Below, in pieces: positions 44,251 through 57,072 of a stretch of 64,000 nt of DNA. Within the stretch, counting starts at the first letter, position 1. Every line of letters begins with the position of its first letter. The stretch is from Herbaspirillum sp. Lineage in GTDB: Bacteria > Pseudomonadota > Gammaproteobacteria > Burkholderiales > Burkholderiaceae_D. Both the position numbers and the translations under genes were made by a program. The notes beneath the pieces are model-generated. The model was not told the origin of the DNA and searched no databases. It saw nothing but the letters and a program-made list of their open reading frames with translations. Location of the stretch: assembly GCF_017744395.1 (NCBI RefSeq), contig NZ_JAGIBI010000012.1:7766-71765 (forward strand). The letters are read 5' to 3'.

Positions 44251-46974
44251 TTATTCTTCCGGCAAGTCGGGCTGCGCCTCCACCGGCAGCGTGAAACAGA
44301 CGGTAGCGCCTTGCCCCGGCTCTTGCGGCGCGATCCAGATGCGGCCCTGGTGGGCTTCGACGATGGCGCGGCAGATCGCCAGGCCGAGGCCGACGCCGGG
44401 CGTGCTGGACTCATTGTCGCCGCGCGTGAATTTTTCGAAAGCGTGCTGCGCCATCGCCGGCGGGAATCCGCGGCCGTGGTCGGACACGCTGACCTTGACC
44501 TGCTGCGCGCCGTCCAGCGTCTCGACATGGGCGGCGATGGCGATGGCGCTGCCCGGCGGCGAATACTTGGCCGCATTCTCCACCAGGTTGGAGAATACCC
44601 GTTCCAGCAGCACCGCATCGACCCGCAGCAGCGGCAAACCGGCCGGCAGGCGCACTTCGACCGAACGGCCTTCGAGCGTCTTTGACAGCAAGCGCAGCGC
44701 CGACCCCGCCACTTCCTCCAGCGCATTCCACTGGCGATTCAGCGTGACTGCGCCGGCCTGCAGGCGCGCCATGTCGAGCAGGTTGTTCATCAGGCCGACC
44801 ATCTTCTGCGACTGTTCACCGATAGTGCGCGCCATGGCGCGGGCATCCTCGTCCAGCCGGGGATTGGCGGCCAGCACGTCGGCGCTGCCGACCAGGGAAG
44901 TCAGCGGTGTGCGCAGGTCATGCGAGATGGCCGACAGCAGCGAGTTGCGCAGGCGTTCCGACTCCATGCTCACCAGCGCATCCTGCGCCACCTCGGCGTA
45001 ATGCAGGCGCTCGATGGCCATGGCGATCTGCGAGCAGAAGATTTCCAGCATCTGGCGGTTCTCGGGCAATGCCAGCTGTGCCGCGGCAAGCTGGCGCTCG
45101 TCCTCGCTGGCGCCTTCGATGGCGAAGGCCAGCACGCCGCGGGTGCGCATGGTGGCCGTCAGCGGCAGGTAAAGCGCGGCGGCCGAAGGCAGCGTGGCGG
45201 TGCCCTTGCCGGCCGGCTGGCCGTTGTCGTAGACCCATTGCGCCACCCCGGCATCGACGCTCTTGAGCACATGGGCGCCGCCCGCCTCCTGCTCCGGCTC
45301 GGCCAGATGCAGCTGGTTGGCGCTGTCGGGCAGGAAAAAGGCGATGCGCGCGCCGAACACCGCGGCCAGGTGGCGGCGGCCGATTTCCAGGATCTGGTCC
45401 AGCGTCAGCAGGGCCGACAATTCCTTGCCCAGCATGTACAGGTTGGAGGCGCGCGTCTCGCGCTGCATGGCCACGCTGGCCTGGCGCCGCAGCCTGGCGG
45501 TCAGCGAGCTGATGAACAGCGACACCGCCAGCATCACCAGCAGCGTCAGCAGGTATTGCACATCCGAGACCGAGATCGAAAACCGTGGATCGACGAAGAA
45601 GAAATCGAAGGACAGCACCGACAGCACCGACACCAGCGCCGAAGCCGAACGGCCATGGCGCATCGCCACCAGCATCACGCCGACCAGGTACAGCATGATG
45701 ACATTGGCCGGATGCAGGAAGTCGTTGAGCACGAAAGCCAGCGCGGTGGTGACGGCGCAACTGGCCACCGCCCAGGCATAGCCGCGTATGCGCCGACGGC
45801 GCGTGAGCAGGTCCTGCGCCGCATCGGCGACGGAATCTTCGCGGCTGTCGCCATCGCCGGCGGCGGTCCGGCTGCGGGCGACGGTATAGATGTCGACGCC
45901 TTCGCCCAGCGCGGCGATGCGCTTGGCCAGCCGGCCGCGCTGCTGGCCGATCACCAGCTTGCCCGCATTGCGGCTCTTGGTGAACTGCAGCAGCGCCGTG
46001 GCGAGTTCGTCGCCGCTGATGCTGGCGGTTTCCGCGCCCAGCGACTGCGCCAGCTTGAGATAGCCGAGCACGCGCTCGCGCCCGGCCAGCGCCTGGCTGC
46101 CATTGGCCAGGTCGACATGCACCGCCAGCCATTCGGCCTGCAGCTTGGCCGCCAGCCGCGCCGCCTCGCGGATCAGCCGCTCCTCGCCGGCACCGCTACC
46201 GACGGCCACCACGATGCGCTCGCGCGCCTGCCATAGCTGGGCGATGGAACGGTCGGCGCGGTACTCGCGCATGTCGGCATCGACCCGGTCGGCGGTGCGG
46301 CGCAAAGCGATCTCGCGCAGCGCGATCAGGTTGCCCTTGCGGAAGAAATTGCGCCCGGCCTTCTCGGCCTGCTGCGGCATATACACCTTGCCTTGCTTCA
46401 GGCGCGCCAGCAGTTCGTCGGGCGGGATGTCGACCAGCATGACGTCGTCGGCCTGGTCGAACACGTGGTCGGGCACGGTCTCGAACACGCGGATGCCGGT
46501 AATCTGGCCGACCACGTCGTTCAGGCTTTCGATGTGCTGGACGTTGAGGGTGGTGTAGACGTCGATGCCGGCTCGCAGCAGTTCGTCGATGTCCTGCCAG
46601 CGTTTGGCATGGCGCGAACCGGGCACGTTGGAATGGGCCAGTTCGTCCACCAGCATGACTTGCGGCTTGCGTTGCAGGGCGGCGTCGAGGTCGAACTCGG
46701 GGAGCAGGCGGTCGCGGTAGGCGACCTTTTTCATCGGCAGGCGTTCGATGCCTTGCAGTTGTTCCTCGGTCTCGCTGCGGCCGTGGGTTTCAACCACGCC
46801 GGCGACCACGTCGATGTTTTGCGCGCGCAGGACCTGGGCGGCTTCCAGCATGGCGAAGGTCTTGCCTACGCCTGCCGAAAAACCGAAAAAGACCTTCAGG
46901 CGGCCGCGGGATTGGCGGTCTTCCTCGCGCATTACGCGTTCGAGCAGGTCGTCGGGGTTGGGGCGGGTGGTCAT
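44251..46974 (-). CDS. kdpD: K+ sensor kinase
   Basis: GFSAGVGKT, VDELAHSN, LRELALR-type motif, USP, TM, GAF, ISHDLRTPL. Confidence 0.96.
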   Translation of the reverse strand: MTTRPNPDDLLERVMREEDRQSRGRLKVFFGFSAGVGKTFAMLEAAQVLRAQNIDVVAGVVETHGRSETEEQLQGIERLPMKKVAYRDRLLPEFDLDAALQRKPQVMLVDELAHSNVPGSRHAKRWQDIDELLRAGIDVYTTLNVQHIESLNDVVGQITGIRVFETVPDHVFDQADDVMLVDIPPDELLARLKQGKVYMPQQAEKAGRNFFRKGNLIALREIALRRTADRVDADMREYRADRSIAQLWQARERIVVAVGSGAGEERLIREAARLAAKLQAEWLAVHVDLANGSQALAGRERVLGYLKLAQSLGAETASISGDELATALLQFTKSRNAGKLVIGQQRGRLAKRIAALGEGVDIYTVARSRTAAGDGDSREDSVADAAQDLLTRRRRIRGYAWAVASCAVTTALAFVLNDFLHPANVIMLYLVGVMLVAMRHGRSASALVSVLSVLSFDFFFVDPRFSISVSDVQYLLTLLVMLAVSLFISSLTARLRRQASVAMQRETRASNLYMLGKELSALLTLDQILEIGRRHLAAVFGARIAFFLPDSANQLHLAEPEQEAGGAHVLKSVDAGVAQWVYDNGQPAGKGTATLPSAAALYLPLTATMRTRGVLAFAIEGASEDERQLAAAQLALPENRQMLEIFCSQIAMAIERLHYAEVAQDALVSMESERLRNSLLSAISHDLRTPLTSLVGSADVLAANPRLDEDARAMARTIGEQSQKMVGLMNNLLDMARLQAGAVTLNRQWNALEEVAGSALRLLSKTLEGRSVEVRLPAGLPLLRVDAVLLERVFSNLVENAAKYSPPGSAIAIAAHVETLDGAQQVKVSVSDHGRGFPPAMAQHAFEKFTRGDNESSTPGVGLGLAICRAIVEAHQGRIWIAPQEPGQGATVCFTLPVEAQPDLPEE

Positions 46975-46997
46975 TTTGAGGATGGTTTTAGAGCATT

Positions 46998-47723
46998 GTA
47001 GTCTGGTCTTGCTGCGTTCTGATGCTCTGGCTTTATTACTTGGTCTCTCCGGTCGAAAGGGAGCGCCGGGGGCGGCCCGGCAGCCGCTCACTTTCTTTGG
47101 CCCGCCAAAGAAAGTAAGCAAAGAAAACGGCCCCTAAGTGCCAGCCCTCCTGCGGAGGGTGCCCGTTGGAGCGCCATGAAAAATGGATCAGCGCGGCAGT
47201 CGGAGCGAAGCGACTCTGCCGAGCCCATTTTTCATGGCGCTCCAACGGCTGGCCCACAAGGGGAAATGCTTAAATGCCTCGCCTGCGGCATCGGGATTGG
47301 GATCGTGGTTCGCTATCTACTGTGGATTTGCCGGCGTCTTAACGACACTGGGTCCTGACTTTCGTCAGGACGACGCGTAGATGCGATAGCGATACACCGC
47401 ACCGATGCCGCAGGCGAGAAGCAAGCACCGCAATGCCGAAGGCGAGCCGTCTCCGCAGTCCGCTTCTGACCAGCCGCTGGAGCGAGGGGAAAAATGGATC
47501 AGAAAGGACGCCGGAGCGCAGCGACTTGCGGCCTTTCCCATTTTTCCCCTCGCTCCAGCGGGTACCCCGAAGGGGCTGGGCAGTAGCGGTCGCCTTCTTT
47601 TGCTTACTTTTCTTGGCGAGACAAGAAAAGTGAGCGGCTGCCGGGCCGCCCCCGGCGCTCACCTTCGACCGAAGAAAGATAAGCATAGAGCCAGTACACC
47701 GACACGCAGCAAGACCAGACTAC
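46998..47723. repeat. 726-bp nested palindromic element, copy 1
   Basis: perfect 20-bp terminal IR GTAGTCTGGTCTTGCTGCGT; mirrored internal modules; central CGTC-type REP hairpin at 47348-47375. Confidence 0.9.
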
Positions 47724-47736
47724 CCAAAAACCCAAA

Positions 47737-48339
47737 CTACTTAGCAGCCAAAGGCAAAGGCGCCACCTCATCCAAAGCCAAATTCAACTTCAACACATTA
47801 ACCCGAGCCTCCCCTAAAAACCCCCACTGCGGCGCCTCGGTATAAGTCCCAACCAACCCACGAACCAGCTCAACCCCAATCCCCCGAGCTCGAGCCACCC
47901 TCCCCACCTGATAATCCGCAGCCGCCGGACTGATATGCGGATCCAGCCCGCTACCGGAAGCCGTCAACAAATCGATAGGAACAGCCGGCCCGCCGCCAGC
48001 CTCGCGCAACACCTTGACCCGCTCCTCGGCAGCCTGCTTGAGCGCCGGATTGGTCGGCCCCAGATTGCTGCCGCCGGAAGCCATGCCGTTATTGGGAAAC
48101 TCGCCGCTAGCCGACGGCCGCCCCCAAAAATACCCGGCCCCGGAGAAATTCTCGCCGATCAGCTCAGAGCCAACCGCCACCCCGCCGCGCTCGATGATGC
48201 TGCCATTGGCCTGGCGCGGAAAGAAAGCCTGCGCCAGCCCGGTAACGACCGCCGGGTAAATGCCGCCGAGCACCACGCCCAACAGGATGAACAAGGTCAG
48301 CGCGGGACGCAGCGCATTATTCGAAAAAGGTGATTTCAT
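47737..48339 (-). CDS. kdpC: Kdp ATPase C chain
   Basis: [46 protein letters not shown]. Confidence 0.96.
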
Positions 48340-48366
48340 GATGTTTCCTTGAGAAGTCAGGATGGC

Positions 48367-50565
48367 TCAAACCAAGCCAAAGGCAGCCAGCAGCATGTCG
48401 ATCAACTTGATGCCGACAAACGGCACCAGCAACCCGCCCACGCCATAAATCAGCAGATTGCGCCGCAGCAGCACCGCCGCGCCCAGCGCGCGGTAAGGCA
48501 CGCCGCGCAGCGCCAGCGGAATCAGCGCGACGATCACCAGCGCATTGAAGATCACCGCCGACATGATGGCCGAGTCGGGGCTGGCCAGATGCATCACGTT
48601 CAACGCGCCCAATTGCGGATAGGTCGCAACGAACATGGCCGGAATGATGGCGAAATACTTGGCCACATCGTTGGCGATGCTGAAGGTGGTCAGGCTGCCG
48701 CGCGTCATCAGCATCTGCTTGCCGATCTCAACGATCTCGATCAGCTTGGTCGGGTTGCTGTCGAGGTCGACCATGTTGCCGGCTTCCTTGGCGGCCTGGG
48801 TGCCGCTGTTCATGGCCACCGCCACATCGGCCTGGGCCAGCGCCGGGGCGTCGTTGGTGCCGTCGCCGGTCATCGCCACCAGCTTGCCTTCGGCCTGGTG
48901 CTGGCGGATCAGCGCCAGCTTCTGCTCCGGCGTGGCTTCAGCCAGGAAGTCGTCGACGCCAGCCTCGGCGGCGATGGCGGCGGCGGTCAGGCGGTTGTCG
49001 CCGGTGATCATCACGGTCTTGATGCCCATGCGGCGCAGCTCGCTGAAGCGCTCCTTGATGCCGCCCTTGACGATGTCCTTCAGTTCCACCGTGCCGAGGA
49101 TGCGGATCGGCGCGCCGTTATGGACCGCTTCGGCATCGCTATGCCACTCCGCCACCACCAGCGGCGTGCCGCCGCGGCGGGCGATCGCTTCGATATCGGT
49201 TTCGACCTGGTTCGGCAGGCGCTGGTCGGCTTGCCGCGCCAGCTTGCGGATGGCGTCGGCCGCGCCCTTGCGAATGCGGCGCGCGCCGAGGTCGATGCCG
49301 GAGACGCGGGTCTGGGCCGAGAACGGGATGAATTGCGCGCCCATGCCCGCCATTTCGCGTTCGCGCAGGTTGAAGCGGTTCTTGGCCAGCACCACGATGC
49401 TGCGGCCTTCCGGCGTCTCGTCGGCCAGCGATGCCAGTTGCGCGACATCGGCCAGCTCGCGCTCGGACACGCCCGGCGCCGGCAGGAAGGCGGCGGCCTG
49501 GCGGTTGCCCAGCGTGATGGTGCCGGTCTTGTCCAGCAGCAGCACGTCGACGTCGCCGGCGGCTTCCACCGCGCGGCCGGAGGTGGCGATCACGTTGGCC
49601 TGCATCATGCGGCTCATGCCGGCCACGCCGATGGCCGACAGCAGGCCGCCGATGGTGGTCGGGATCAGGCAGACCAGCAGCGCGATCAGGGCGGTGACCG
49701 TGACCGGCGCGCCAGCGCCGGCAGCCGTAACCGAGAATTGCGAGAACGGCAGCAGGGTCACCGTCACCAGCAGGAACACGATGGTCAGCGCCACCAGCAG
49801 CAGCGTGAGCGCGAGTTCGTTGGGCGTCTTCTGGCGGCGCGCGCCTTCGACCATGGCGATCATGCGGTCGAGGAAGGCTTCGCCCGGGTTGACCGAGACG
49901 CGCACGACGATCCAGTCCGACAACACCCGGGTACCGCCGGTCACGGCCGAGAAGTCGCCGCCGGATTCGCGGATCACCGGGGCTGATTCGCCGGTGATGG
50001 CGCTCTCGTCCACGGTGGCGACGCCTTCGATGACGTCGCCGTCGGCCGGCACGGTGTCGCCGGCTTCGATCAGCACCAGGTCGCCTTTGCGCAAGGAGCC
50101 GCCCTCCACCACTTCACACTGGTCATGGCTGACGCCGGCGCCGCGCACCAGCTCGGCGCGGCGCAGCTTCTTGGCCAGCACGCTTTTCTTGACGCCGCGC
50201 AGCGCCGCCGCCTGGGCCTTGCTGCGGCCCTCGGCCAGCGCTTCGGCGAAGTTGGCGAACAGCACCGTGAACCACAGCCAGGCGGCGATGGCGAAGATGA
50301 AGCCGGCCGGCGCCTCGCCCTTGGACACCAGCGCCTGGATGAACAGCAGCGTGGTCAGGATGCTGCCGAGGTAGACCACGAACATCACCGGGTTGCGCCA
50401 CTGCACGCGCGGCGACAGCTTGCGGAAAGAGTCGACCAGTGCCGGCTTGACGATCCTGGGATCGAACATCCAGCGCGCGGTCTGCGCGGCGGACGGTATC
50501 GCATCCGATGCCGCAGCGGCGCCGGACGGAGTATGGGAGGAAGGAGTAGTCATATCAGTATCCAT
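48367..50565 (-). CDS. kdpB: Kdp ATPase B chain
   Basis: [37 protein letters not shown]. Confidence 0.97.
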
Positions 50566-50568
50566 TTT

Positions 50569-52350
50569 TTACATCGCCATCATTTGCAGATGCTCGACCA
50601 CCGGACCCAGCGCCAGCGCCGGGACATAGGTCAGCGCACCGACCAGGATCACCGCGCCGATCAGCAGGGCCACAAACAGCGGGCCGTGCGTGGGCAAGGT
50701 GCCGGAAGTCGCGGCCAGCCGCTTCTTGCCGGCCAGCGAGCCGGCCATCGCCAGTACCGGGACGATGATCCCGAAGCGGCCCAGCCACATGGCGATGCCG
50801 GTGGTGATGTTGTAGTACGGCGTGTTGGCAGAAAGCCCGGCGAAGGCGCTGCCGTTGTTGTTGGCGGCCGAACTGAAGGCGTACAGGATTTCGGAGAAGC
50901 CGTGCGCGCCGGGGTTGGCGATGCCGGCCAGGCCGCTCTCCACCATCACCGAGACGGCGGTGAAGATCAGCACCAGCGCCGGCGTCATCAAGATGGCGAT
51001 CGACATCATCTTCATGTCGAACACGCCGATCTTCTTGCCCAGGTATTCCGGCGTGCGGCCGATCATCAGGCCGGCGATGAACACCGCCAGCACGGCGAAG
51101 ATCAGCATGCCGTACAGGCCGGCGCCGACGCCGCCGTAGACCACCTCGCCCAGCTGCATCTGCAGCATCGGCACCAGCCCGCCCAGCGGCGAGAGCGAAT
51201 CATGCATGGCATTGACCGCGCCGCAGGAAGCGGCCGTGGTGATGGCGGCGAACAGGCTGGAAGCGATGATGCCGAAGCGGGTTTCCTTGCCTTCCATCAT
51301 GCCGGGGCCGGAGGCGTGCAGCGACGCCAGCATGGGGTTGGGCTGCGATTCGAAATACATGATCGTCAGCGTCATCGCCGCGAACAGGATGGTCATCGCC
51401 GCCAGGATGGCCCAGCCCTGGCGGCGGTCGCCGACCAATACGCCGAAGCTGGTACACAGCGCGGCGGGGATGATCAGGATCGCCAGCATCTCCAGGAAGT
51501 TGGACAATGGGGTCGGGTTCTCGTACGGGTGTGCCGAATTGGCGTTGAAGAAGCCGCCGCCGTTGGTGCCCAGCATCTTGATCGCTTCCTGCGAGGCGAC
51601 CGGCCCCATCGGCAGGATCTGCTTATCGGTGCTCTTGGCCTCGACCACCGGCTCGCCCTTGGCATCCTTCATCGGCTGGCCCGCGGCGTCCAGCTTGGGC
51701 GTCGTGTAGTGGGTCGTTTCCAGCGTCTTCACTTCCTGGTAGGGCTTGAAGTTCTGGATGCTGCCCTGCTGCACCAGCGCCAGCGCCAGGACCACCGACA
51801 GCGGCAGCAGCACGTACAGCGAGGAGCGCAGCATGTCGACCCAGAAGTTGCCGATGCTCTTGCTGCTGTGGCGGGCGAAGCCACGGATCAGCGCGAAGGC
51901 GATGGCGATGCCGGTGGCGGCCGAGACGAAGTTCTGCACCGCCAGCGCCACCATCTGCGTCAGGTAGCTCATGGTGGACTCGCCCACGTAGCCTTGCCAG
52001 TTGGTGTTGGCGACGAAACTGATTGCGGTGTTGAACGAGGAATCGACGCCGACGTTGCCCAGTGCCTGCGGGTTCAGCGGCAGCCATTGCTGCACGCGCT
52101 GCAGGGCGTAGACGAACAGCAGGCCGAGCAGGTTGAACAGCACCGCGGCGATGGCGTATTGCTTCCAGTCCATCTCGGCATCGCGCTGGATGCCGCACAG
52201 GCGGCACAGCACGCGCTCCACGCCGCCGAAGATACGGTTGATTGCCGATTTCCCTTCCATCACGTGCGCGATGTAGCCGCCCAGCGGTACCGACAGCACC
52301 AGCAGGATGGCGAGATAGAGGGCTAGTTGGAGATAGGCGTTGCCGTCCAT
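50569..52350 (-). CDS. kdpA: Kdp ATPase A chain
   Basis: NTNWQGY, LGTNGGGFF, SCGAVN, NNGSAFAG. Confidence 0.97.
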   Translation of the reverse strand: MDGNAYLQLALYLAILLVLSVPLGGYIAHVMEGKSAINRIFGGVERVLCRLCGIQRDAEMDWKQYAIAAVLFNLLGLLFVYALQRVQQWLPLNPQALGNVGVDSSFNTAISFVANTNWQGYVGESTMSYLTQMVALAVQNFVSAATGIAIAFALIRGFARHSSKSIGNFWVDMLRSSLYVLLPLSVVLALALVQQGSIQNFKPYQEVKTLETTHYTTPKLDAAGQPMKDAKGEPVVEAKSTDKQILPMGPVASQEAIKMLGTNGGGFFNANSAHPYENPTPLSNFLEMLAILIIPAALCTSFGVLVGDRRQGWAILAAMTILFAAMTLTIMYFESQPNPMLASLHASGPGMMEGKETRFGIIASSLFAAITTAASCGAVNAMHDSLSPLGGLVPMLQMQLGEVVYGGVGAGLYGMLIFAVLAVFIAGLMIGRTPEYLGKKIGVFDMKMMSIAILMTPALVLIFTAVSVMVESGLAGIANPGAHGFSEILYAFSSAANNNGSAFAGLSANTPYYNITTGIAMWLGRFGIIVPVLAMAGSLAGKKRLAATSGTLPTHGPLFVALLIGAVILVGALTYVPALALGPVVEHLQMMAM

Positions 52351-52351
52351 G

Positions 52352-52441
52352 TCAGAACTCCTCCGGCTTGATCAGGGCGTACACCAGGTACGCCAGCAGG
52401 CCGACCGAAACGGCCAGGCCGAGCAAGGTCATGGCGTTCAT
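52352..52441 (-). CDS. kdpF: Kdp ATPase F peptide (29 aa)
   Basis: LLAYLVYALIKPEEF signature. Confidence 0.93.
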   Translation of the reverse strand: MNAMTLLGLAVSVGLLAYLVYALIKPEEF

Positions 52442-52551
52442 TTCTTGTCGCCCTCCTGCCGTTCGAGGCGGCTGCACAGGGCGATGAAGCCCCACATCGA
52501 GGCGCCGCACAAGAGCAGCATGCCTACATAGAGAAAATCGGTTTGCCACAT
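52438..52551 (-). CDS. 37-aa hydrophobic ORF coupled to kdpF
   Basis: MWQTDFLYVGMLLLCGASMWGFIALCSRLERQEGDKK; GGAG upstream; TGA overlaps the kdpF ATG. Confidence 0.7.
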   Translation of the reverse strand: MWQTDFLYVGMLLLCGASMWGFIALCSRLERQEGDKK

Positions 52552-52611
52552 TTCCCACTCCATTGTTTGCGTTGTTCGATCCGTTCCGCATGCGGAATCG
52601 GAGACAGTCCA

Positions 52612-52676
52612 ACGATAGGCGGATGGGCGTTAAATCCTGGTAAAACTATGGGGATGGGGTGTAAACAGGATGTAAA
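52612..52676 (-). promoter_or_regulatory. KdpE-binding sites and -10 of the kdpFABC promoter
   Basis: GTTTACATCCTGTTTACACCCC resembles the E. coli KdpE box (TTTACACCCC); second tandem site; TATCGT -10. Confidence 0.8.
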
Positions 52677-52754
52677 CAGGCGCCGGCAGCCGGCCTGGGG
52701 AAAACCGGAGCGGCACTGGATTGGCGAGATGAAGGGAAATGCGGAAAGGCGGGA

Positions 52755-54914
52755 TCAGACGTCGGTGATCTTGGCCACATGCACCCGGTCCTTGCCCAGG
52801 CGCTTGGCGGCGTACATCGCCTTGTCGGCCATGGCCAGCAGTTCTTCCGGCCCGGTCTCGCCATCCTCGTCGGGGAGGTAGACGGCCACGCCGATGCTGC
52901 TGGAGACATTGATGCGCGAATGCGTCAGCTCGAACGGTTCGCGTATGGCATTGAGGATCTTTTCGGCCACGTTGACCGCATCCTGCTGGGTCTGCAACTT
53001 TTCCAGGATCACCACGAACTCGTCGCCGGCCAGCCGCGACACGGTGTCGACGTCGCGCACCGAATCCTGCAGGCGCCGGGTGAACTGGACCAGCAGCTCA
53101 TCGCCGGCCTCGTGGCCGTAACGGTCGTTGACGCCCTTGAAGCCGTCGATGTCCATGAAGAACAGCGCCATCGGCTCATGCGCACGGCGCGCGCGCATCA
53201 TCGCTTCGGGCAGGCGGTCGGAGAAGGCGCGGCGGTTGGGCAGGCCGGTCAGCATGTCGGTCAGCGCCAGCTCGCGCATCTGGTCGCGGAAGGCCAGCCG
53301 TTCGGTGATGTCGTGCAGGAAGGCGATGAACAGGTGCCCGCTGTGGCGCTTGACGTGGCCGACCGTGATCTCGACCGGCAGTTCGTGGCCGTCATGGTGC
53401 AGGGCCTGCAGTTCGATACGGTTGTTGATGACCACGCTGGCGCCGGTTTCGAGGAATTCCTTCATGCCCCGGTAGTGGGCCTCGCGCATGTCCTGCGGGA
53501 TGATCAGCTCGGCCATCTTGCGGCCCACCGCCTCGGTGCGCATCCAGCCCAGCAGCAGTTCGGCCTGGCGGTTCCATTCGACGATCACGCCCTGCTCGTC
53601 GGCGGCGATGAAAGCATCCTGGGCGTTCTCCAGGATCGCGCGCAGTTCGTCGGCGGTTTCTTCCAGCTTGATCTGGTTGGCGTGCTGCACGTCCAGCGAC
53701 TGCTGCAGCGCCATGGCGGTTTCATGCAGGCGGCTGGTGCGCTCGGCGACCCGCTGTTCCAGGCTTTCGTTGAGCGAACGCATTTCGCGCAGGTAGGTTT
53801 CTTCCCGCTCCACCATGTTGACCAAGCTCGCCGACAGCAACTGCACTTCGCGGTAGCTGTTGACCAGCGGGATAGGCACGTCCTGCGCCCCGGCGCCGCG
53901 CAGCTCCAGCGCCGCGCTCAAGGCATTGACCGGTCCCACCAGGCGGCGCGTGAGCGCATAGGCCAGGATCACCAGCACCGCGCCGATTAGCGCGCCGACC
54001 ATGATCACCCGACGCTCCAGGCTATGGAAGGCTTCCAGCGCGATATGCTCGGGCTGGCGCACGATCACGCTCCAGTTGGGCATCATGCTGCTGCCCTGGC
54101 CGGTGCGCGAAAAGCCGGTGATGTAGCGGCGGCCGTCAGGCCATGCTTCCAGCACGACGCCGCCGTCCTGCGATTTTTGCGAAGCGGTGAAGCTGGCGGT
54201 GGCGATCTTCCGTTCTTCGAGTTCCTTGGGACCGAGTATCACGGTGCCGTCGGCGCGCACGACCATGACTTCGACGCCATACCGGTCGCCGGCCGGATTG
54301 ATCAGCTTGGTCGCGATCTCGCGCGCCCAGGTCCAGGAGAGATGGATGCCGACCACGCCGATAAAGCGCCCCTGCACGTCCTGCACCGGCGCGGAGAGAT
54401 CGACGAAGCGCCAGGGTTCCGGCTGCTGCGGCAGCTTCGGCTCCAGCAGGATGGCGGGATGGTAATCGCCGGAATAGAAATGGCTCCGGCCTTCCTTGAA
54501 CCATGGGCGCTCAGCCACGCTCTGGCCTTCAAGCACACCGTTGGTCGCCGCCAATACCGTGCCGTCGGGAGCGGCCATGCCGATCCAGGCGTAGTTGGGA
54601 ACATTGGCCTGCAAGTCGTTGAAGACGTCGCGCATATGCGGCACATCCTTGCCGGCACGGACGGACGGTCGCGCCACCAGGATGCGCAAATCGATCTGGC
54701 GCTCGGCCATGCTGCGCTCCAGCGCCTCCTGCATCTGCCAGGCGATCTGCTTGAGGCGAGTCTCCGCTTCCGAGCGCGCGTAGCCCCGGGTGAACTGATC
54801 CACCAGGATCAGCACCGACACGGTCGTGATCAGCACGGTAACGACCACCCCCATCGTGATCAGCGATGACAGATTCGGAGGAGATGGGACTTTTTTGTTA
54901 TTCAATTGGGACAA
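52755..54914 (-). CDS. dCache-HAMP-PAS diguanylate cyclase
   Basis: 2 TMs flanking Cache, PAS, DMLTGLPNR, RDVD I-site, AGDEF active-site variant. Confidence 0.9.
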   Translation of the reverse strand: MSQLNNKKVPSPPNLSSLITMGVVVTVLITTVSVLILVDQFTRGYARSEAETRLKQIAWQMQEALERSMAERQIDLRILVARPSVRAGKDVPHMRDVFNDLQANVPNYAWIGMAAPDGTVLAATNGVLEGQSVAERPWFKEGRSHFYSGDYHPAILLEPKLPQQPEPWRFVDLSAPVQDVQGRFIGVVGIHLSWTWAREIATKLINPAGDRYGVEVMVVRADGTVILGPKELEERKIATASFTASQKSQDGGVVLEAWPDGRRYITGFSRTGQGSSMMPNWSVIVRQPEHIALEAFHSLERRVIMVGALIGAVLVILAYALTRRLVGPVNALSAALELRGAGAQDVPIPLVNSYREVQLLSASLVNMVEREETYLREMRSLNESLEQRVAERTSRLHETAMALQQSLDVQHANQIKLEETADELRAILENAQDAFIAADEQGVIVEWNRQAELLLGWMRTEAVGRKMAELIIPQDMREAHYRGMKEFLETGASVVINNRIELQALHHDGHELPVEITVGHVKRHSGHLFIAFLHDITERLAFRDQMRELALTDMLTGLPNRRAFSDRLPEAMMRARRAHEPMALFFMDIDGFKGVNDRYGHEAGDELLVQFTRRLQDSVRDVDTVSRLAGDEFVVILEKLQTQQDAVNVAEKILNAIREPFELTHSRINVSSSIGVAVYLPDEDGETGPEELLAMADKAMYAAKRLGKDRVHVAKITDV

Positions 54915-55307
54915 ATTGCGGCGATACGGGCAAGTGCATGACGGTTCCCCCCTGAGAGCCGCGCTCGTTGTTTACATGGCATCTTGCCAGAACGTTCACA
55001 TTTTTTCATCGGCTTTAATCAAAAGTACGACAAATATTTTTCCGGGGGGAAAGCGGTGTGGGCGAGTATATCCATCAATACGAGCACGGTGGAAACGGAT
55101 GCGGGCAACATGCCGGAGATAGGCGCGAAATCTCAAACAATGGGAAATTCTGTGAGGAGGGGGCGGTGCAAAAAGACAACGAACGCGGGATGGAGGGGGG
55201 GGGGCTGCCGTCAGTTGGGGATGGGATGGTGGTGCGCCGATGTTTTCTTGGCGTTGAAGTTGGAGTTGAAGCAAGGCAACATCTCTGGATTGCTTGGGTT
55301 GTTCTGG

Positions 55308-56048
55308 GCAGTCTGGTCTTGCTGCGTGCAGATGTACTGGCTCTATGCTTTTCTTTCTCCGGTCGAAGCGGAGCGCCGGGGGCGGCCCGGCAGCCGCTCA
55401 CTTTCTTTGGCCCGCCAAAGAAAGTAAGCAAAGAAAACGGCCCCTAAGTGCCAGCCCCTTCGGGGTACCCGTTGGAGTGCGCTGAAAAATGGGAAAGGCC
55501 GCAAGTCGCTTCGCTCCGGCGTCCTTTCTGATCCATTTTTCAGCGCACTCCAACGGCTGGCCCACAAGGGGAAATGCTTAAATGCCTCGCCTTCGGCATC
55601 GGGATTGGGACCGTGGTTCGCTATCTTCTGCGGCTTTGCTAACGTCTTAACGACACTGGGTCCTGACTTTCGTCAGGATGACGCGTAGATGCGATAGCGA
55701 TCAAAAACACCGAAGCCGCAGGCGAGATGCAAGCACCGCAAGGCCGAAGGCGAGCCGTCTCCGCAGTCCGCTTCTGACCAGCCGCTGGAATGAGGGGAAA
55801 AATGGATCAGAAAGGACGCCGGAGCGCAGCGACTTGCGGCCTTTCCCATTTTTCCCCTCATTCCAGCGGGAACCCCGAAGGGGCTGGTTAGTAGCCTTGT
55901 TGGAGCAGTGCTCCAACCCTTCTTTTGCTTACTTTTCTTGGCGAGACAAGAAAAGTGAGCGGCTGCCGGGCCGCCCCCGGCGCTCCCTCCCGACCGAAGA
56001 AAGATAAGTATAGAGCCAGTACATCTGCACGCAGCAAGACCAGACTAC
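55308..56048. repeat. 741-bp nested palindromic element, copy 2 (same orientation as copy 1)
   Basis: terminal IR of about 41 bp with 1 mismatch; 55370-55457 identical to 47060-47147; central REP hairpin at 55656-55683. Confidence 0.9.
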
Positions 56049-56061
56049 CTATACCACCACA

Positions 56062-57072
56062 TTAAACAACAGCACTACGCTCCAACTGATCCCGAACCTC
56101 AGCCACAATCTCAAACGAATACAACCGCGCTGCATGATCATAAATCTGCGCAGTAATCATCAACTCATCCGGCGCCATCTCGTCAATAAAGTTCTGCAAC
56201 CCCTCACGCACGGACTCCCGATCCCCCACCACGGCACAAGCCAGCGACCGCTCCACATGCGTCTGCTCCCCCGGCTGCCAGTAATCGGCGATATCGTCCA
56301 CCGGCGGATTCAACTGTCCCGGCGTCCCCCGGATCAGGTTGATGAACTGCTGCTGCAGCGAACTGAACAGGCGCACCGCCTCGCGGTCGGTATCGGCGGC
56401 GAACACGTTCAGGCCCAGCATCACATACGGCTTTTGCAGAGCGGCTGACGGCTTGAAGCGGGCCCGGTAGATCTCCACCGCCGACTTCATGAAGCCCGGC
56501 GCGAAATGCGAGGCGAAGGCGAACGGCAGGCCCATCTCAGCCGCCAGTTGGGCACTGAACATGCTTGACCCCAGCAGCCAGATCGGCACGTTCAGGCCGG
56601 CCCCCGGCACCGCCCGCAGCGGCTGGTAGTCGGATGGCCCGGCGAAATAATCCTGCAGCTCCTGCACGTCCTGCGGAAAATTCTCGGCAGTGTCGCCGCC
56701 CATGTGGCGGCGCAACGCGCGGGCGGTGCGCTGATCCGAGCCGGGCGCGCGCCCCAGGCCGAGATCGATGCGGCCGGGATAGAGCGACTCCAGCGTGCCG
56801 AACTGCTCGGCGATCACCAGCGGCGAATGGTTGGGCAGCATGATGCCGCCGGAGCCGACACGGATGCTTTGGGTATTGGCCGCCACATGCGAGATCACCA
56901 GTGAAGTCGCGGCGCTGGCGATGCCGGCCATGTTGTGGTGCTCGGCCAGCCAGTAGCGCCGGTAGCCGAGTTTTTCGGCCAGTTGCGCCAGTTCCTTGGT
57001 GTTGTTGAAGGCCTGGGCGGCGGTGCTGCCCTTGTTGATCGGGGACAGGTCTAGGACGGAAAACGGAATCAT
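56062..57072 (-). CDS. LLM-class (luciferase-like, YhbW-type) monooxygenase
   Basis: [36 protein letters not shown]. Confidence 0.92.

Follow-up and report, generated by a model that had tools for sequence, protein, structure and literature searches.

Two non-coding palindromes in a Herbaspirillum sp. contig

The window, a 64,000-nt stretch of Herbaspirillum sp. contig NZ_JAGIBI010000012.1, contains two copies of a hairpin-rich element, one at the junction of kdpD and kdpC and the other between a PAS-GGDEF gene and a gene for a luciferase-like monooxygenase. The features are listed below; 'halo' denotes a flanking zone of one-strand base change, and the orientation of the copy 1 arms is taken from regional GC skew.

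46900-46997, plus strand C-poor: weaker halo over the kdpD 5' end and leader
46973, minus strand: start of kdpD
46998-47724 (727 bp): copy 1, inverted dimer (arm - REP - arm')
46998-47320, minus strand: left arm of copy 1, a ~320-bp unit aligned with 56 other arms; outer end at 46998, terminus-facing
47070-47119, plus strand: best-conserved block of the arm, composed of a GC-rich hairpin and T tract followed by hairpin H1 (47086-47119)
47163-47248: hairpin H2 of the left arm, with a 24-bp perfect stem and a hypervariable, always-compensated core
47341-47375, minus strand: central REP of copy 1, CGTC-1 type, CGTC-GTCCTGAC-GAAA-GTCAGGAC-CCA(G)
47402-47724, plus strand: right arm of copy 1; outer end at 47724, origin-facing
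47474-47561: hairpin H2 of the right arm
47725-47950, minus strand (coding strand, running into the element): halo at the kdpC 3' end; third-position C 0.02, T 0.38
47737, minus strand: stop of kdpC
52755-54914, minus strand: PAS-GGDEF gene, with copy 2 on its upstream side
55050-55307, plus strand: halo left of copy 2; GC skew +0.25 to +0.52
55308-56049 (~742 bp): copy 2, inverted dimer
55649-55683, minus strand: central REP of copy 2, CGTC-ATCCTGAC-GAAA-GTCAGGAC-CCA
56050-56300, minus strand: halo at the 3' end of the monooxygenase gene; third-position C 0.06, T 0.42
56062, minus strand: stop of the monooxygenase gene

A reading made from the sequence alone had described a nested palindrome of about 730 bp in two copies, and this description of the window holds, the copies being 87% identical to each other. 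Each is an imperfect palindrome that matches its own reverse complement over the whole element (68-72% identity, E = 2.6e-57 to 8.9e-95), with the terminal 125 nt 82-86% complementary. The terminal inverted repeats that it described are present and reach ~36 nt (GGTAGTCTGGTCTTGCTGCGTGCAGATGTACTGGCT), the mirrored hairpins ACTTTCTTTG/CAAAGAAAGT lie at 47086-47119 and 47602-47635, the 24-bp stems are perfect (47163-47186/47225-47248, 55782-55805/55846-55869, plus others), and the central hairpin differs by one base between the copies. Copy 2 carries an additional 17-nt hairpin at 55899-55917, and the apical loop of H2 in the left arm of copy 1 (47187-47224) lies in the opposite orientation to that in the other copies. 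The hairpin and T tract of the most conserved block, which is nearly invariant between species, resemble a terminator reading inward and have a mirror copy at 47602-47651. The inner end of the arm holds two to four direct GAWGCCGMAGGCGAG motifs. Neither a conserved ORF nor, in any of five full copies, a target-site duplication is found, as had been proposed.

A mosaic family of arms and REPs

Comparison of copies shows that the ~730-bp palindromes are each built from two inverted arms, hairpin-rich non-coding modules of ~320 bp that meet inner end to inner end over a single CGTC-1-type REP hairpin. It is the arm, not the ~730-bp form, that serves as the unit in a mosaic repeat family across Herbaspirillum. 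Arms occur alone, as REP plus arm, as inverted dimers and, in some species, as unidirectional arrays in which [small hairpin module][REP][arm] is repeated in tandem; those in the complete relative G019 contain two to five units. The commonest form is the single arm, which has just one 36-nt end. The element is not restricted to two copies, since a search of this genome recovers at least five dimers (five as full copies), five REP-plus-arm halves (element positions 344-727) and at least five fragments at contig ends. These copies are old (87-89% identity). The arm family is matched in 22 of 24 sampled Herbaspirillum species, with a copy number that varies widely between them, and 7 of 44 genomes have many copies of the exact 18-nt end.

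The central hairpin has about 50 further copies in this genome and is a genuine member of its REP family, of which 67 oriented members occur mainly as inverted doublets (~24). Its CGTC tag, 8-bp stem, 4-nt loop and CCA tail match the CGTC-1 family of Di Nocera et al. 2013 (PMC3733652). The proposal that the element joins two REP classes is upheld for the CGTC REP at the centre and fails for the GTAG-type ends, after which there is no local palindromic stem. The terminal CTAC of copy 1 falls on a native CTACAATGC motif that is likewise present in relatives with an empty site, and so, on the strength of one empty-site comparison, the terminal CTAC/GTAG may be target DNA.

The arm family is well described as a composite, non-coding and non-autonomous repeat, and none of the five full or five half copies has a target-site duplication. 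Across 44 genomes the ends occur as inverted pairs 446-810 bp apart only, and from this lack of wider pairs we conclude that there is no autonomous, transposase-bearing partner. The sequence-only reading had also looked to a RAYT enzyme flanked by these ends. The sole Y1/RAYT-like gene in this genome is single-copy, scores 78.1 bits against an NCBIfam cut-off of 80, and has neither REPs nor element ends on its flanks; related genes are found in 42 of 44 genomes of the genus and are equally present where arms are few or absent. A link between CGTC REPs and RAYTs is likewise not borne out, as this class has no known transposase and no RAYT linkage (PMC3733652). No enzyme is tied to the element, the candidate gene being unflanked and independent of arm abundance.

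Conservation of the hairpins

Among 57 aligned arms, 98.1% of stem cells are paired compared with 91.6% in shuffles, and slid controls of the alignment reach just 41-49%. Double (compensatory) changes affect 30 pairs (17.8 +/- 1.8 in shuffles, with 0 of 500 as good), and the single-stranded DNA fold of the arm has z = -6.2. G.U wobbles are concentrated on the outward-running strand and A.C mismatches, the equivalent of G.U on the opposite strand, are rare: columns 246/273 are UG in 50 of 57 sequences, and columns 277/301 are GU in 56 of 57. In origin-facing arms this G.U-rich strand is the leading-strand template, the opposite of a simple IS608-like prediction in which the active strand is on the lagging template.

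Replication polarity and a one-sided mutational halo

Unpaired arms have a near-uniform polarity relative to replication. In G019 (dnaA at 424-903) the outer end faces the origin at 41 of 42 ends, with 10/10 ends at 1.15-1.88 Mb pointing leftward and 31/31 at 3.36-4.72 Mb rightward, and the sole exception is the second end of a dimer. All five half elements of this genome are origin-facing as judged by GC skew, and unpaired ends inside one draft contig are nearly always co-oriented. The G019 bias is probably above what gene-strand bias gives.

The outer ends border a second unusual feature. At 19 of 19 outer ends in this genome there is a zone of ~300 nt in which the strand entering the element is depleted of A and, by C>T and C>G, of C. 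Over these ends the outermost 50 nt show base fractions of 0.41 for A and 0.13 for G (genome-wide 0.18 and 0.32), a shift that decays over ~300 nt. No such halo is found at five inner ends or at solo REPs. It is replicated in G019, on a single side only, and dimers have it at both outer ends, the terminus-facing one included. A truncated arm that is apparently reverse-oriented has a short halo still at its outer end (n=1).

The halo is tied to the presence of the element at two loci, in that kdpC and the monooxygenase gene are unaffected in species without the element at the site in question; beside the latter, more than 20 relatives without the element have third-position C of 0.20-0.46 and T of 0.06-0.26. 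Polarised changes in kdpC are C>T 26, C>G 14 and A>G 7, versus G>A 1, G>C 4 and T>C 0, and silent-site divergence is about twofold in the 50 codons nearest the element. The tail of the kdpC protein is conserved despite the halo, and a one-strand mutation gradient has rewritten the silent codon positions of neighbouring genes.

Variable occupancy of orthologous sites

Species differ in which sites are occupied, and in relatives solo or paired REPs stand in the place of arms. The kdpC-kdpD junction is filled in G000, G013, G019, G017 and G005, at different positions, and is empty in nine species, whereas the site downstream of the monooxygenase gene is empty in the closest relatives (G052 and G013). 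Site S9 has a REP alone in G019, REP plus arm in this genome and three arms in G045; site S10 has a REP doublet in three species and REP plus arm in this genome. Elements coincide with breaks in synteny when this genome is compared with its closest relative. Empty and differently filled orthologous sites thus exist, in contrast to the fixed single positions across distant strains that would have spoken against the sequence-only reading.

Origin of the elements and their halos

A plausible scenario, to which we give about an even chance, is that the arm is a non-autonomous DNA element of the NIME/BIME kind that is processed in single-stranded form at the replication fork, the halo arising from single-strand exposure. 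The element acts as DNA. Arms are probably mobilised or copied as single strands at the fork, either by a trans-acting HUH enzyme, for which the conserved single-copy RAYT-like gene would be the sole candidate, or by hairpin-mediated template switching at REPs. Such handling would explain the lack of target-site duplications, the association with REPs, the same-direction arrays and the near-absolute orientation of unpaired arms, whose outer ends face the origin, and IS200/IS605 elements provide an established case of lagging-strand-coupled, orientation-biased single-strand transposition drawn to stalled forks (PMC5027513). The orientation bias could alternatively stem from selection, and it counts against mobility that no excision or insertion event is observed directly. 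The compensated hairpins probably impede DNA synthesis, or suffer nicks or breaks at the outer end, such that the flanking strand running 5' to 3' into the element would remain single-stranded for longer and would undergo deamination (C>T, A>G) or loss of C (C>G), giving a gradient of ~300-600 nt and recoding silent sites in kdpC, kdpD and the monooxygenase gene. The halos at both ends of dimers are more than a pure lagging-strand-gap model can explain, and call in addition for a break, a nick or an uncoupling of the leading strand.

The halo could instead reflect hairpin repeats that are ancient and passive, that were spread through recombination or duplication and that are cut as hairpins or cruciforms by SbcCD-type nucleases during replication, with 5' to 3' resection leaving the 3'-ended strand single-stranded on either side and only one orientation being tolerated. 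The loss of C and A has exactly the polarity of resected 3' tails on both sides of a break, dimers have two-sided halos, synteny is broken at elements, and E. coli SbcCD is reported to cleave long palindromes (PMC3315005, PMC4245961). However, a break within hairpins should give two-sided halos, whereas in single arms and arrays, neither of which forms a long palindrome, they occur at the outer end only, as in the apparently reversed truncated arm (n=1); the association with REPs is also left unexplained, as is the fact that insertions arose independently at several positions of a single intergenic region, and we regard this origin as unlikely. A structured RNA, with the arm as its gene or cis-element read from inner to outer end, the RNA fold under selection and the DNA features as by-products, seems quite unlikely to us. 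The strong covariation, the excess of G.U over A.C on the outward-running strand and the block almost invariant between species would suit an RNA, but an Rfam search gives no family at threshold, neither copy has a sigma-70-like promoter, and in a palindromic dimer both strands would specify the RNA. Outward-directed transcription would moreover be head-on to replication in 41 of 42 cases and predicts C loss on the strand opposite to that observed, and the inversion of the H2 apical loop in some copies is typical of DNA hairpins.

Domestication by the host, as a polar terminator or insulator or as an array to which a nucleoid or replication protein binds, with selection for sequence, position and orientation, would account for the inward GC hairpin and T tract in each arm's most conserved block, for the occupation of the same intergenic regions in several species and for the GAWGCCGMAGGCGAG motifs, which resemble protein-binding repeats. 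It is nonetheless improbable, as orthologous occupancy is variable, arm-poor species manage without, some outer ends adjoin gene starts rather than gene ends, arrays of up to five units are hard to justify as terminators, and a gene-strand bias would probably fall short of 41/42. Near-perfect ~36-nt terminal inverted repeats kept across copies and species, together with copy numbers that differ greatly between species, recall a classical MITE, a deletion derivative of a DDE-transposase IS mobilised through those repeats; yet the ten full and half copies show no target-site duplication, single arms have one end only, no end pair lies more than 810 bp apart, and orientation is strongly polar to replication, all of which makes a MITE very improbable.

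Comparison with known systems

The NIMEs of Neisseria reportedly consist of RS segments with dRS3 repeats on their flanks. They are similar in being reiterated non-coding segments bracketed by CGTC-1 REPs, as in the G019 [REP][arm] arrays, and in lacking a known dedicated transposase; the REP family is the same, dRS3 being a member of CGTC-1 (PMC3733652). The Herbaspirillum arms differ in being far longer (320 bp) and highly structured, and in having one sharp outer end, a fixed replication orientation and a flanking mutation gradient. We know of no description of the last three for NIMEs.

Escherichia coli BIMEs and Pseudomonas REPINs similarly combine REP hairpins in mosaics with other conserved motifs, form inverted REP doublets and preserve stem pairing through compensatory changes, and the single-copy, vertically inherited RAYT-like gene recalls their RAYTs. 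The REPs here are instead CGTC-tagged, a class without RAYT linkage, the RAYT-like gene is unflanked by them, and the 320-bp arm has no counterpart. With IS200/IS605 elements and their non-autonomous derivatives, the PATEs ('peel and paste' single-strand transposition), the arms share hairpin-rich ends without target-site duplications and possibly a flanking tetranucleotide (GTAG) belonging to the target; a strong replication-orientation bias is common to IS200/IS605, which cluster at stalled forks (PMC5027513). Unlike IS200/IS605, no TnpA-bearing copy with these ends occurs in 44 genomes, the first hairpin lies ~50 nt from the outer end, and the wobble asymmetry suggests that the folded strand is on the leading-strand template.

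A literature search found no description of such a hairpin-flanking mutational footprint in bacteria. The closest parallel is single-strand mutagenesis at fragile inverted repeats and breaks in yeast and at the palindromes that SbcCD cleaves in E. coli (PMC3315005, PMC4245961), where a hairpin or palindrome also poses a problem for replication. The polarity, on the 3'-ended or lagging-template strand, and the C>T and C>G spectrum are alike; in Herbaspirillum, by contrast, the footprint is evolutionary, recorded in natural genomes and filtered by protein selection, and is one-sided at single arms.

Two large imperfect palindromes

The two elements of about 730 bp described in the sequence-only reading are real, and an alignment of the five full copies in the genome bears out every hairpin listed for them.

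46998-47724, copy 1, 727 bp
55308-56049, copy 2, about 742 bp

The copies are 87% identical and 8.3 kb apart, and each is a large imperfect palindrome in which the outer 125 nt are complementary at 82-86% and an alignment of the whole element to its reverse complement gives 68-72% identity (E = 2.6e-57 to 8.9e-95). Each is a dimer of two inverted arms, hairpin-rich non-coding units of about 320 bp, on either side of a REP; a half element is a REP with one arm. The outer end of an arm carries a terminal inverted repeat of about 36 nt (GGTAGTCTGGTCTTGCTGCGTGCAGATGTACTGGCT in the alignment of the five full copies), and the inner end is the REP side. No target-site duplication is present at 10 copies (five full and five half), as had been suggested from the two in the window. 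The view that no credible protein is encoded also holds: the longest ORFs (115-146 aa) differ between the copies, and an ATG-led frame of 60 codons, read by eye in the left arm of copy 1, lacks a start codon in copy 2, so protein coding was dropped.

An additional hairpin of 17-19 nt (GTTGGAGCAGTGCTCCAAC) occupies the same arm position in three copies (55899-55917, C6:388293-388698 and C3:80419-80743, the window itself being C3:7766-71765) and is the mark of a sub-lineage. At the inner ends a 15-nt motif, GAWGCCGMAGGCGAG, is present in two to four direct repeats at a spacing of 15-20 nt (for example at 47404-47450, and in the flanks of relatives' loci L027 and L054), the number differing from copy to copy; these look like protein-binding repeats.

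The central REP and the GTAG termini

CGTC-1 REPs are hairpins tagged on one side with unpaired CGTC (or TGTC/CCTC), with an 8-bp stem, which may begin with AT, a 4-nt loop and a short CCA tail; they occur mostly as inverted dimers and do not flank a transposase gene (Di Nocera et al. 2013, PMC3733652). The same study equates Neisseria dRS3 with CGTC-1 and finds no association of CGTC repeats with transposase genes (PMC3733652). The central hairpin of the element, GTCCTGAC / GAAA / GTCAGGAC followed by CCA, has the stem, loop and tail of this class, and the CGTC tag precedes GTCCTGAC on the minus strand at 47375-47372 and 55683-55680. The genome holds 67 oriented copies of the hairpin, likewise tagged, mostly as inverted doublets of two stem types. 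About 24 of these doublets are REPIN-like, joining a type A stem (GTCCTGAC or GCCCTGAC) to one of type B (ATCCCGGC), and in copies of type B (ATCCCGGC...GCCGGGAT) the stem likewise begins with AT.

C10:147544-147635, REP doublet
C5:104083-104174, REP doublet

The complete relative genome G019 carries the same REP family with a different stem (CCCCGC/GCGGGG) and conserved flanks. The central CGTC REP that had been proposed is thus present in tag, stem, loop, tail and inverted dimers, and the hairpin is the genome's own REP, built as in the CGTC-1 family.

The terminal GTAG had been taken for a second REP tag, and this assignment fails. No stem adjoins the terminal sequence GTAGTCTGGTCTTGCTGCG..., whose only pairing partner is the far end some 700 nt away, and without a following stem the GTAG is no GTAG-REP tag. 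Copy 1 ends at the kdp site in a CTAC that belongs to a motif upstream of kdpD, CACTACAATGC. Copy 1 abuts this motif exactly, relatives with empty or otherwise filled kdp sites have it too, and the CTAC is native flanking DNA; from this one empty-site comparison, the GTAG may be target DNA. In several species (46974-46997 here, and relatives' loci L069, L070, L072, L073, L081 and L085) the CACTACAATGC motif stands 20-40 nt ahead of the kdpD start, and it looks like the -10 element (TACAAT) of an internal kdpD promoter.

A mosaic family across Herbaspirillum

Copy number exceeds the two elements first noticed. The genome (4.32 Mb, 63.5% G+C, 12 contigs) has five full dimers that are 87-89% identical to one another, five halves (element positions 344-727) that start precisely with the central hairpin, and fragments at contig ends. 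Six contig ends stop inside copies (C3:1-203, C4:1266860-1266982, C9:1-181, C9:462870-463436, C12:1-116 and C2:2780-2954); because contigs break within copies, the true number must be above this count and the repeat limits the assembly.

Family matches were found in 22 of 24 sampled species, where a single arm of about 320 bp or a REP with one arm is the commonest form. G019 carries tandem arrays of 2-5 units in the same direction, each consisting of a small hairpin module, a REP and an arm, so that the arrangements seen are the arm alone, REP+arm, arm-REP-arm and two to five repeats of module, REP and arm. The module before each REP in the G019 arrays has its own hairpin, TTCGATACGCCGC-N-GCGGCTACTCAGCCCGAACGG (for example at L109:1358-1450), and is also seen beside single arms in other species. 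Exact outer ends reach high copy in only seven of 44 genomes of the genus: 19 ends in this genome, 42 in G019, 35 in G045, 31 in G052, 23 in G013, eight in G042 and five in G003. When all genomes were searched with a 17-nt end pattern, the matches outside this genome were Herbaspirillum records only (H. robiniae, H. chlorophenolicum, and Herbaspirillum spp. SJZ106 and LeCh32-8), together with chance single matches. Short element matches also occur beyond the genus, in G027, G029 and G031 (other families of the same order; E ~1e-12, at most nine per genome), and probably represent the REP or the conserved H1/GC-hairpin block, H1 being a hairpin of the arm. Literature searches returned nothing relevant on a described Herbaspirillum repeat or MITE.

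The arm fold is conserved

Among 57 aligned arms from five or more species, 98.1% of cells in the consensus structure are paired, compared with 91.6% in shuffles, and 30 of 83 pairs have changes on both sides (17.8 +/- 1.8 in shuffles, with 0 of 500 as high); sliding the partners as a control leaves 41-49% of cells paired. A single arm folds as single-stranded DNA far better than its shuffles do (z = -6.2). Hairpin H1 switches between CT/AG and TC/GA with compensation, and the core of H2, the hairpin with the 24-bp stem, is hypervariable and always mirrored. On the strand running outward G.U pairs are frequent and A.C mismatches rare, so the fold of one strand matters more than that of the other.

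The apical 38 nt or so of H2 in the left arm of copy 1 (47187-47224) is the reverse complement of that in other copies (for example 55493-55531), and the same flip is seen in a few arms from other species (L004:1472-1792 and L044:526-846). It is a flip-flop inversion between the arms of the 24-bp stem, of a form typical of recombination within DNA hairpins.

Occupancy of orthologous sites

Comparison with relatives shows orthologous sites that are empty or differently filled. The kdpC-kdpD junction is occupied by a dimer in this genome, by a dimer at another position in G013, in G019 by a tandem pair of arms that turn the opposite end to kdpD, and by fragments in G017 and G005, and is empty (0-140 bp) in nine species; downstream of the monooxygenase gene, the closest relatives, G052 and G013, have an empty site. 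At a further orthologous site, S9, REP+arm is present in this genome, G052 and G003; G045 has three arms there and G019 a solo REP alone. At S10 the REP+arm of this genome corresponds to a REP doublet in three species. These differences place arms next to REPs, and the element prefers REP sites. A simple origin for the palindrome offers itself, in which two arms are joined on either side of one REP.

Three dimer sites have different neighbors across the element in this genome and in G052, where the flanks are 90-96% identical.

C10:133115-133838, dimer at a synteny break
C4:1148846-1149570, dimer at a synteny break
55308-56049 of the window, dimer (copy 2) at a synteny break

In G052 the flanks of these dimers adjoin elements on different contigs or different genes, including a different neighbor at the insertion point of copy 2. 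Because the neighbors across the three sites differ, the copies mark rearrangement or synteny breakpoints.

Outer ends face the replication origin

The orientation of the arms follows replication. In G019, with dnaA at 424-903 of 4,986,464 bp, each of the 10 outer ends located at 1.15-1.88 Mb is directed to lower coordinates, and each of the 31 located at 3.36-4.72 Mb to higher ones; overall 41 of 42 face the origin, the lone exception being the second end of a dimer, and outer ends so placed meet the incoming fork first. All five half elements of this genome also face the origin, as judged from regional GC skew, and in draft genomes the unpaired ends of any one contig point the same way almost without exception. 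The REP doublets have no orientation bias (28 versus 26).

A mutational halo at outer ends

Outer ends are bordered by a zone of altered composition, here termed the halo. Over the first 50 nt on the outward strand of all 19 outer ends, A is 0.41 and G is 0.13 (genome 0.18 and 0.32) with C unchanged, and the effect fades over about 300 nt; seen on the other strand, C and A have been lost from the strand that runs 5'->3' into the element. The halo is absent at the inner ends of half elements and around solo REPs. It is also present in G019, on one side only.

The flanking genes show the same effect at silent sites. The C-terminus of KdpC is conserved, and third-position C in the last 50 codons of kdpC is 0.02 in this genome, 0.16-0.22 in other element-bearing species and 0.30-0.42 in the nine empty-site species. 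Relative to the empty-site consensus, the second half of kdpC has 26 C>T, 14 C>G and seven A>G changes, against one G>A, four G>C and no T>C. In the monooxygenase gene, third-position C and T are 0.06 and 0.42 here, and 0.20-0.46 and 0.06-0.26 in more than 20 relatives without an adjoining element. Silent-site divergence over the last 50 codons is 0.50 from the closest comparator and 0.19-0.26 in control pairs, about twice the rate and with strong bias. KdpD was named from its translation, and kdpA, kdpB and kdpF from order and size only; the gene we take to be kdpC was named by likening its translated C-terminus to E. coli KdpC, and the GGDEF protein, monooxygenase and RAYT-like protein were checked by family search.

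A preference of the element for A/C-rich targets would give a similar composition around insertions, but where no element adjoins them the orthologous ends of kdpC and the monooxygenase gene have a normal composition, and the halo is mutational and not a target preference. Outward transcription-associated mutagenesis was rejected, as it predicts C loss on the other strand, and so was inward transcription as a general cause, as halos are also found beside flanking genes whose transcription leads away from the element. A pure lagging-strand-gap model is insufficient, as terminus-facing ends of dimers also carry halos. Halos are one-sided for single arms and two-sided for dimers, and in one fragment, apparently in reverse orientation, the halo still lies at the outer end; in this small sample, the pattern favors an end-specific cause.

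Relationship to known element classes

The claim of a REPIN-like element stands in part. A RAYT-like gene is present in one copy in 42 of the 44 genus genomes, in the manner of a single-copy, vertically inherited homologue, and inverted doublets are present, but the RAYT gene is not flanked by REPs. The sole Y1_Tnp gene in this genome (C5:587614-588336) reaches 78.1 bits in the family search, where the REP_Tyr_transpos cut-off is 80, and lies between a putative membrane-protein ORF and a downstream ORF read as a putative gltB; REPs and arm ends are both absent within 3 kb of it, so the RAYT or TnpA(Y1) gene flanked by these ends, for which a search had been proposed, was not found, and RAYT linkage was rejected for this genome. 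A MITE derived from a DDE insertion sequence would share the inverted repeats, but there is no duplication at the 10 copies, most family members have only one such end, and the 44 genomes have no autonomous element, since none of them contains inverted end pairs more than 810 bp apart. The absence of a target-site duplication and the replication-coupled orientation are as in IS200/IS605-derived elements, and the GTAG, possibly target DNA at the one empty site, may be a flanking tetranucleotide of their kind; no TnpA-bearing copy sharing the ends was found in the 44 genomes. The structured-RNA alternative gained no match at gathering score, Rfam 15 giving only chance miRNA-hairpin matches far under thresholds at E <= 1, and a sigma-70 promoter scan found no site in copy 1 or copy 2. 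The combination of a REP with other modules in variable arrangements and arrays is that of BIME/NIME-type mosaics. The element is thus a non-autonomous, REP-associated, NIME/BIME-like mosaic that is structurally constrained and replication-polar, with a single-strand-type mutational footprint specific to its outer ends.

A plausible scenario is that the arms are handled as single-stranded DNA at the replication fork, for which IS200/IS605 elements are a precedent, their insertions being biased in orientation to the lagging-strand template and drawn to stalled forks (PMC5027513). Such handling would also explain the same-direction arrays. It could proceed through a trans-acting HUH enzyme, for which the single-copy RAYT-like gene, unlinked to the repeats, is a candidate, or through template switching at REP hairpins. 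The halo would fit a prolonged exposure of the inward-running strand, whether from an unfinished Okazaki fragment upstream of template hairpins, from nicking and 5'->3' excision at the outer end, or from a break with resection at dimers, for which SbcCD is a precedent (PMC3315005, PMC4245961). We tentatively propose, at somewhat less than even confidence, that the arm is a replication-polar element handled as single-stranded DNA and that its outer end is a recurrent site of single-strand exposure, by a nick, break or polymerase block. If so, a family of bacterial intergenic repeats sets up mutation gradients that are strand-specific and heritable and that recode neighboring genes at silent sites, a so far undescribed way for repeats to shape bacterial genome composition, and the one-sided halos of single arms and two-sided halos of dimers would be a natural experiment separating end-specific from palindrome-specific causes.

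The kind of REP (CGTC-1) is already known and the mosaic organization has known analogues; the literature searched contains no description of the 320-bp arm, its replication polarity or its one-sided halo. The footprint on adjacent genes, in which one strand loses C over 300-600 nt while the proteins stay conserved, raises the question of what share of local codon usage in bacteria is set by neighboring repeats as opposed to selection, and annotators should not take odd codon usage at gene ends beside such repeats as a sign of horizontal transfer. Further questions are whether a DNA substrate exists for the single-copy RAYT-like genes, which are widespread, and for orphan CGTC REPs, and how the replication fork and hairpin repeats encounter each other; for all three, culturable, plant-associated Herbaspirillum provides a tractable system. 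The usual view of REP, BIME and NIME-type repeats is of small, symmetric and mutationally neutral neighbors. The Herbaspirillum arm family, in contrast, is directional, prefers REP sites, leaves a footprint on genes and lies at synteny breakpoints.
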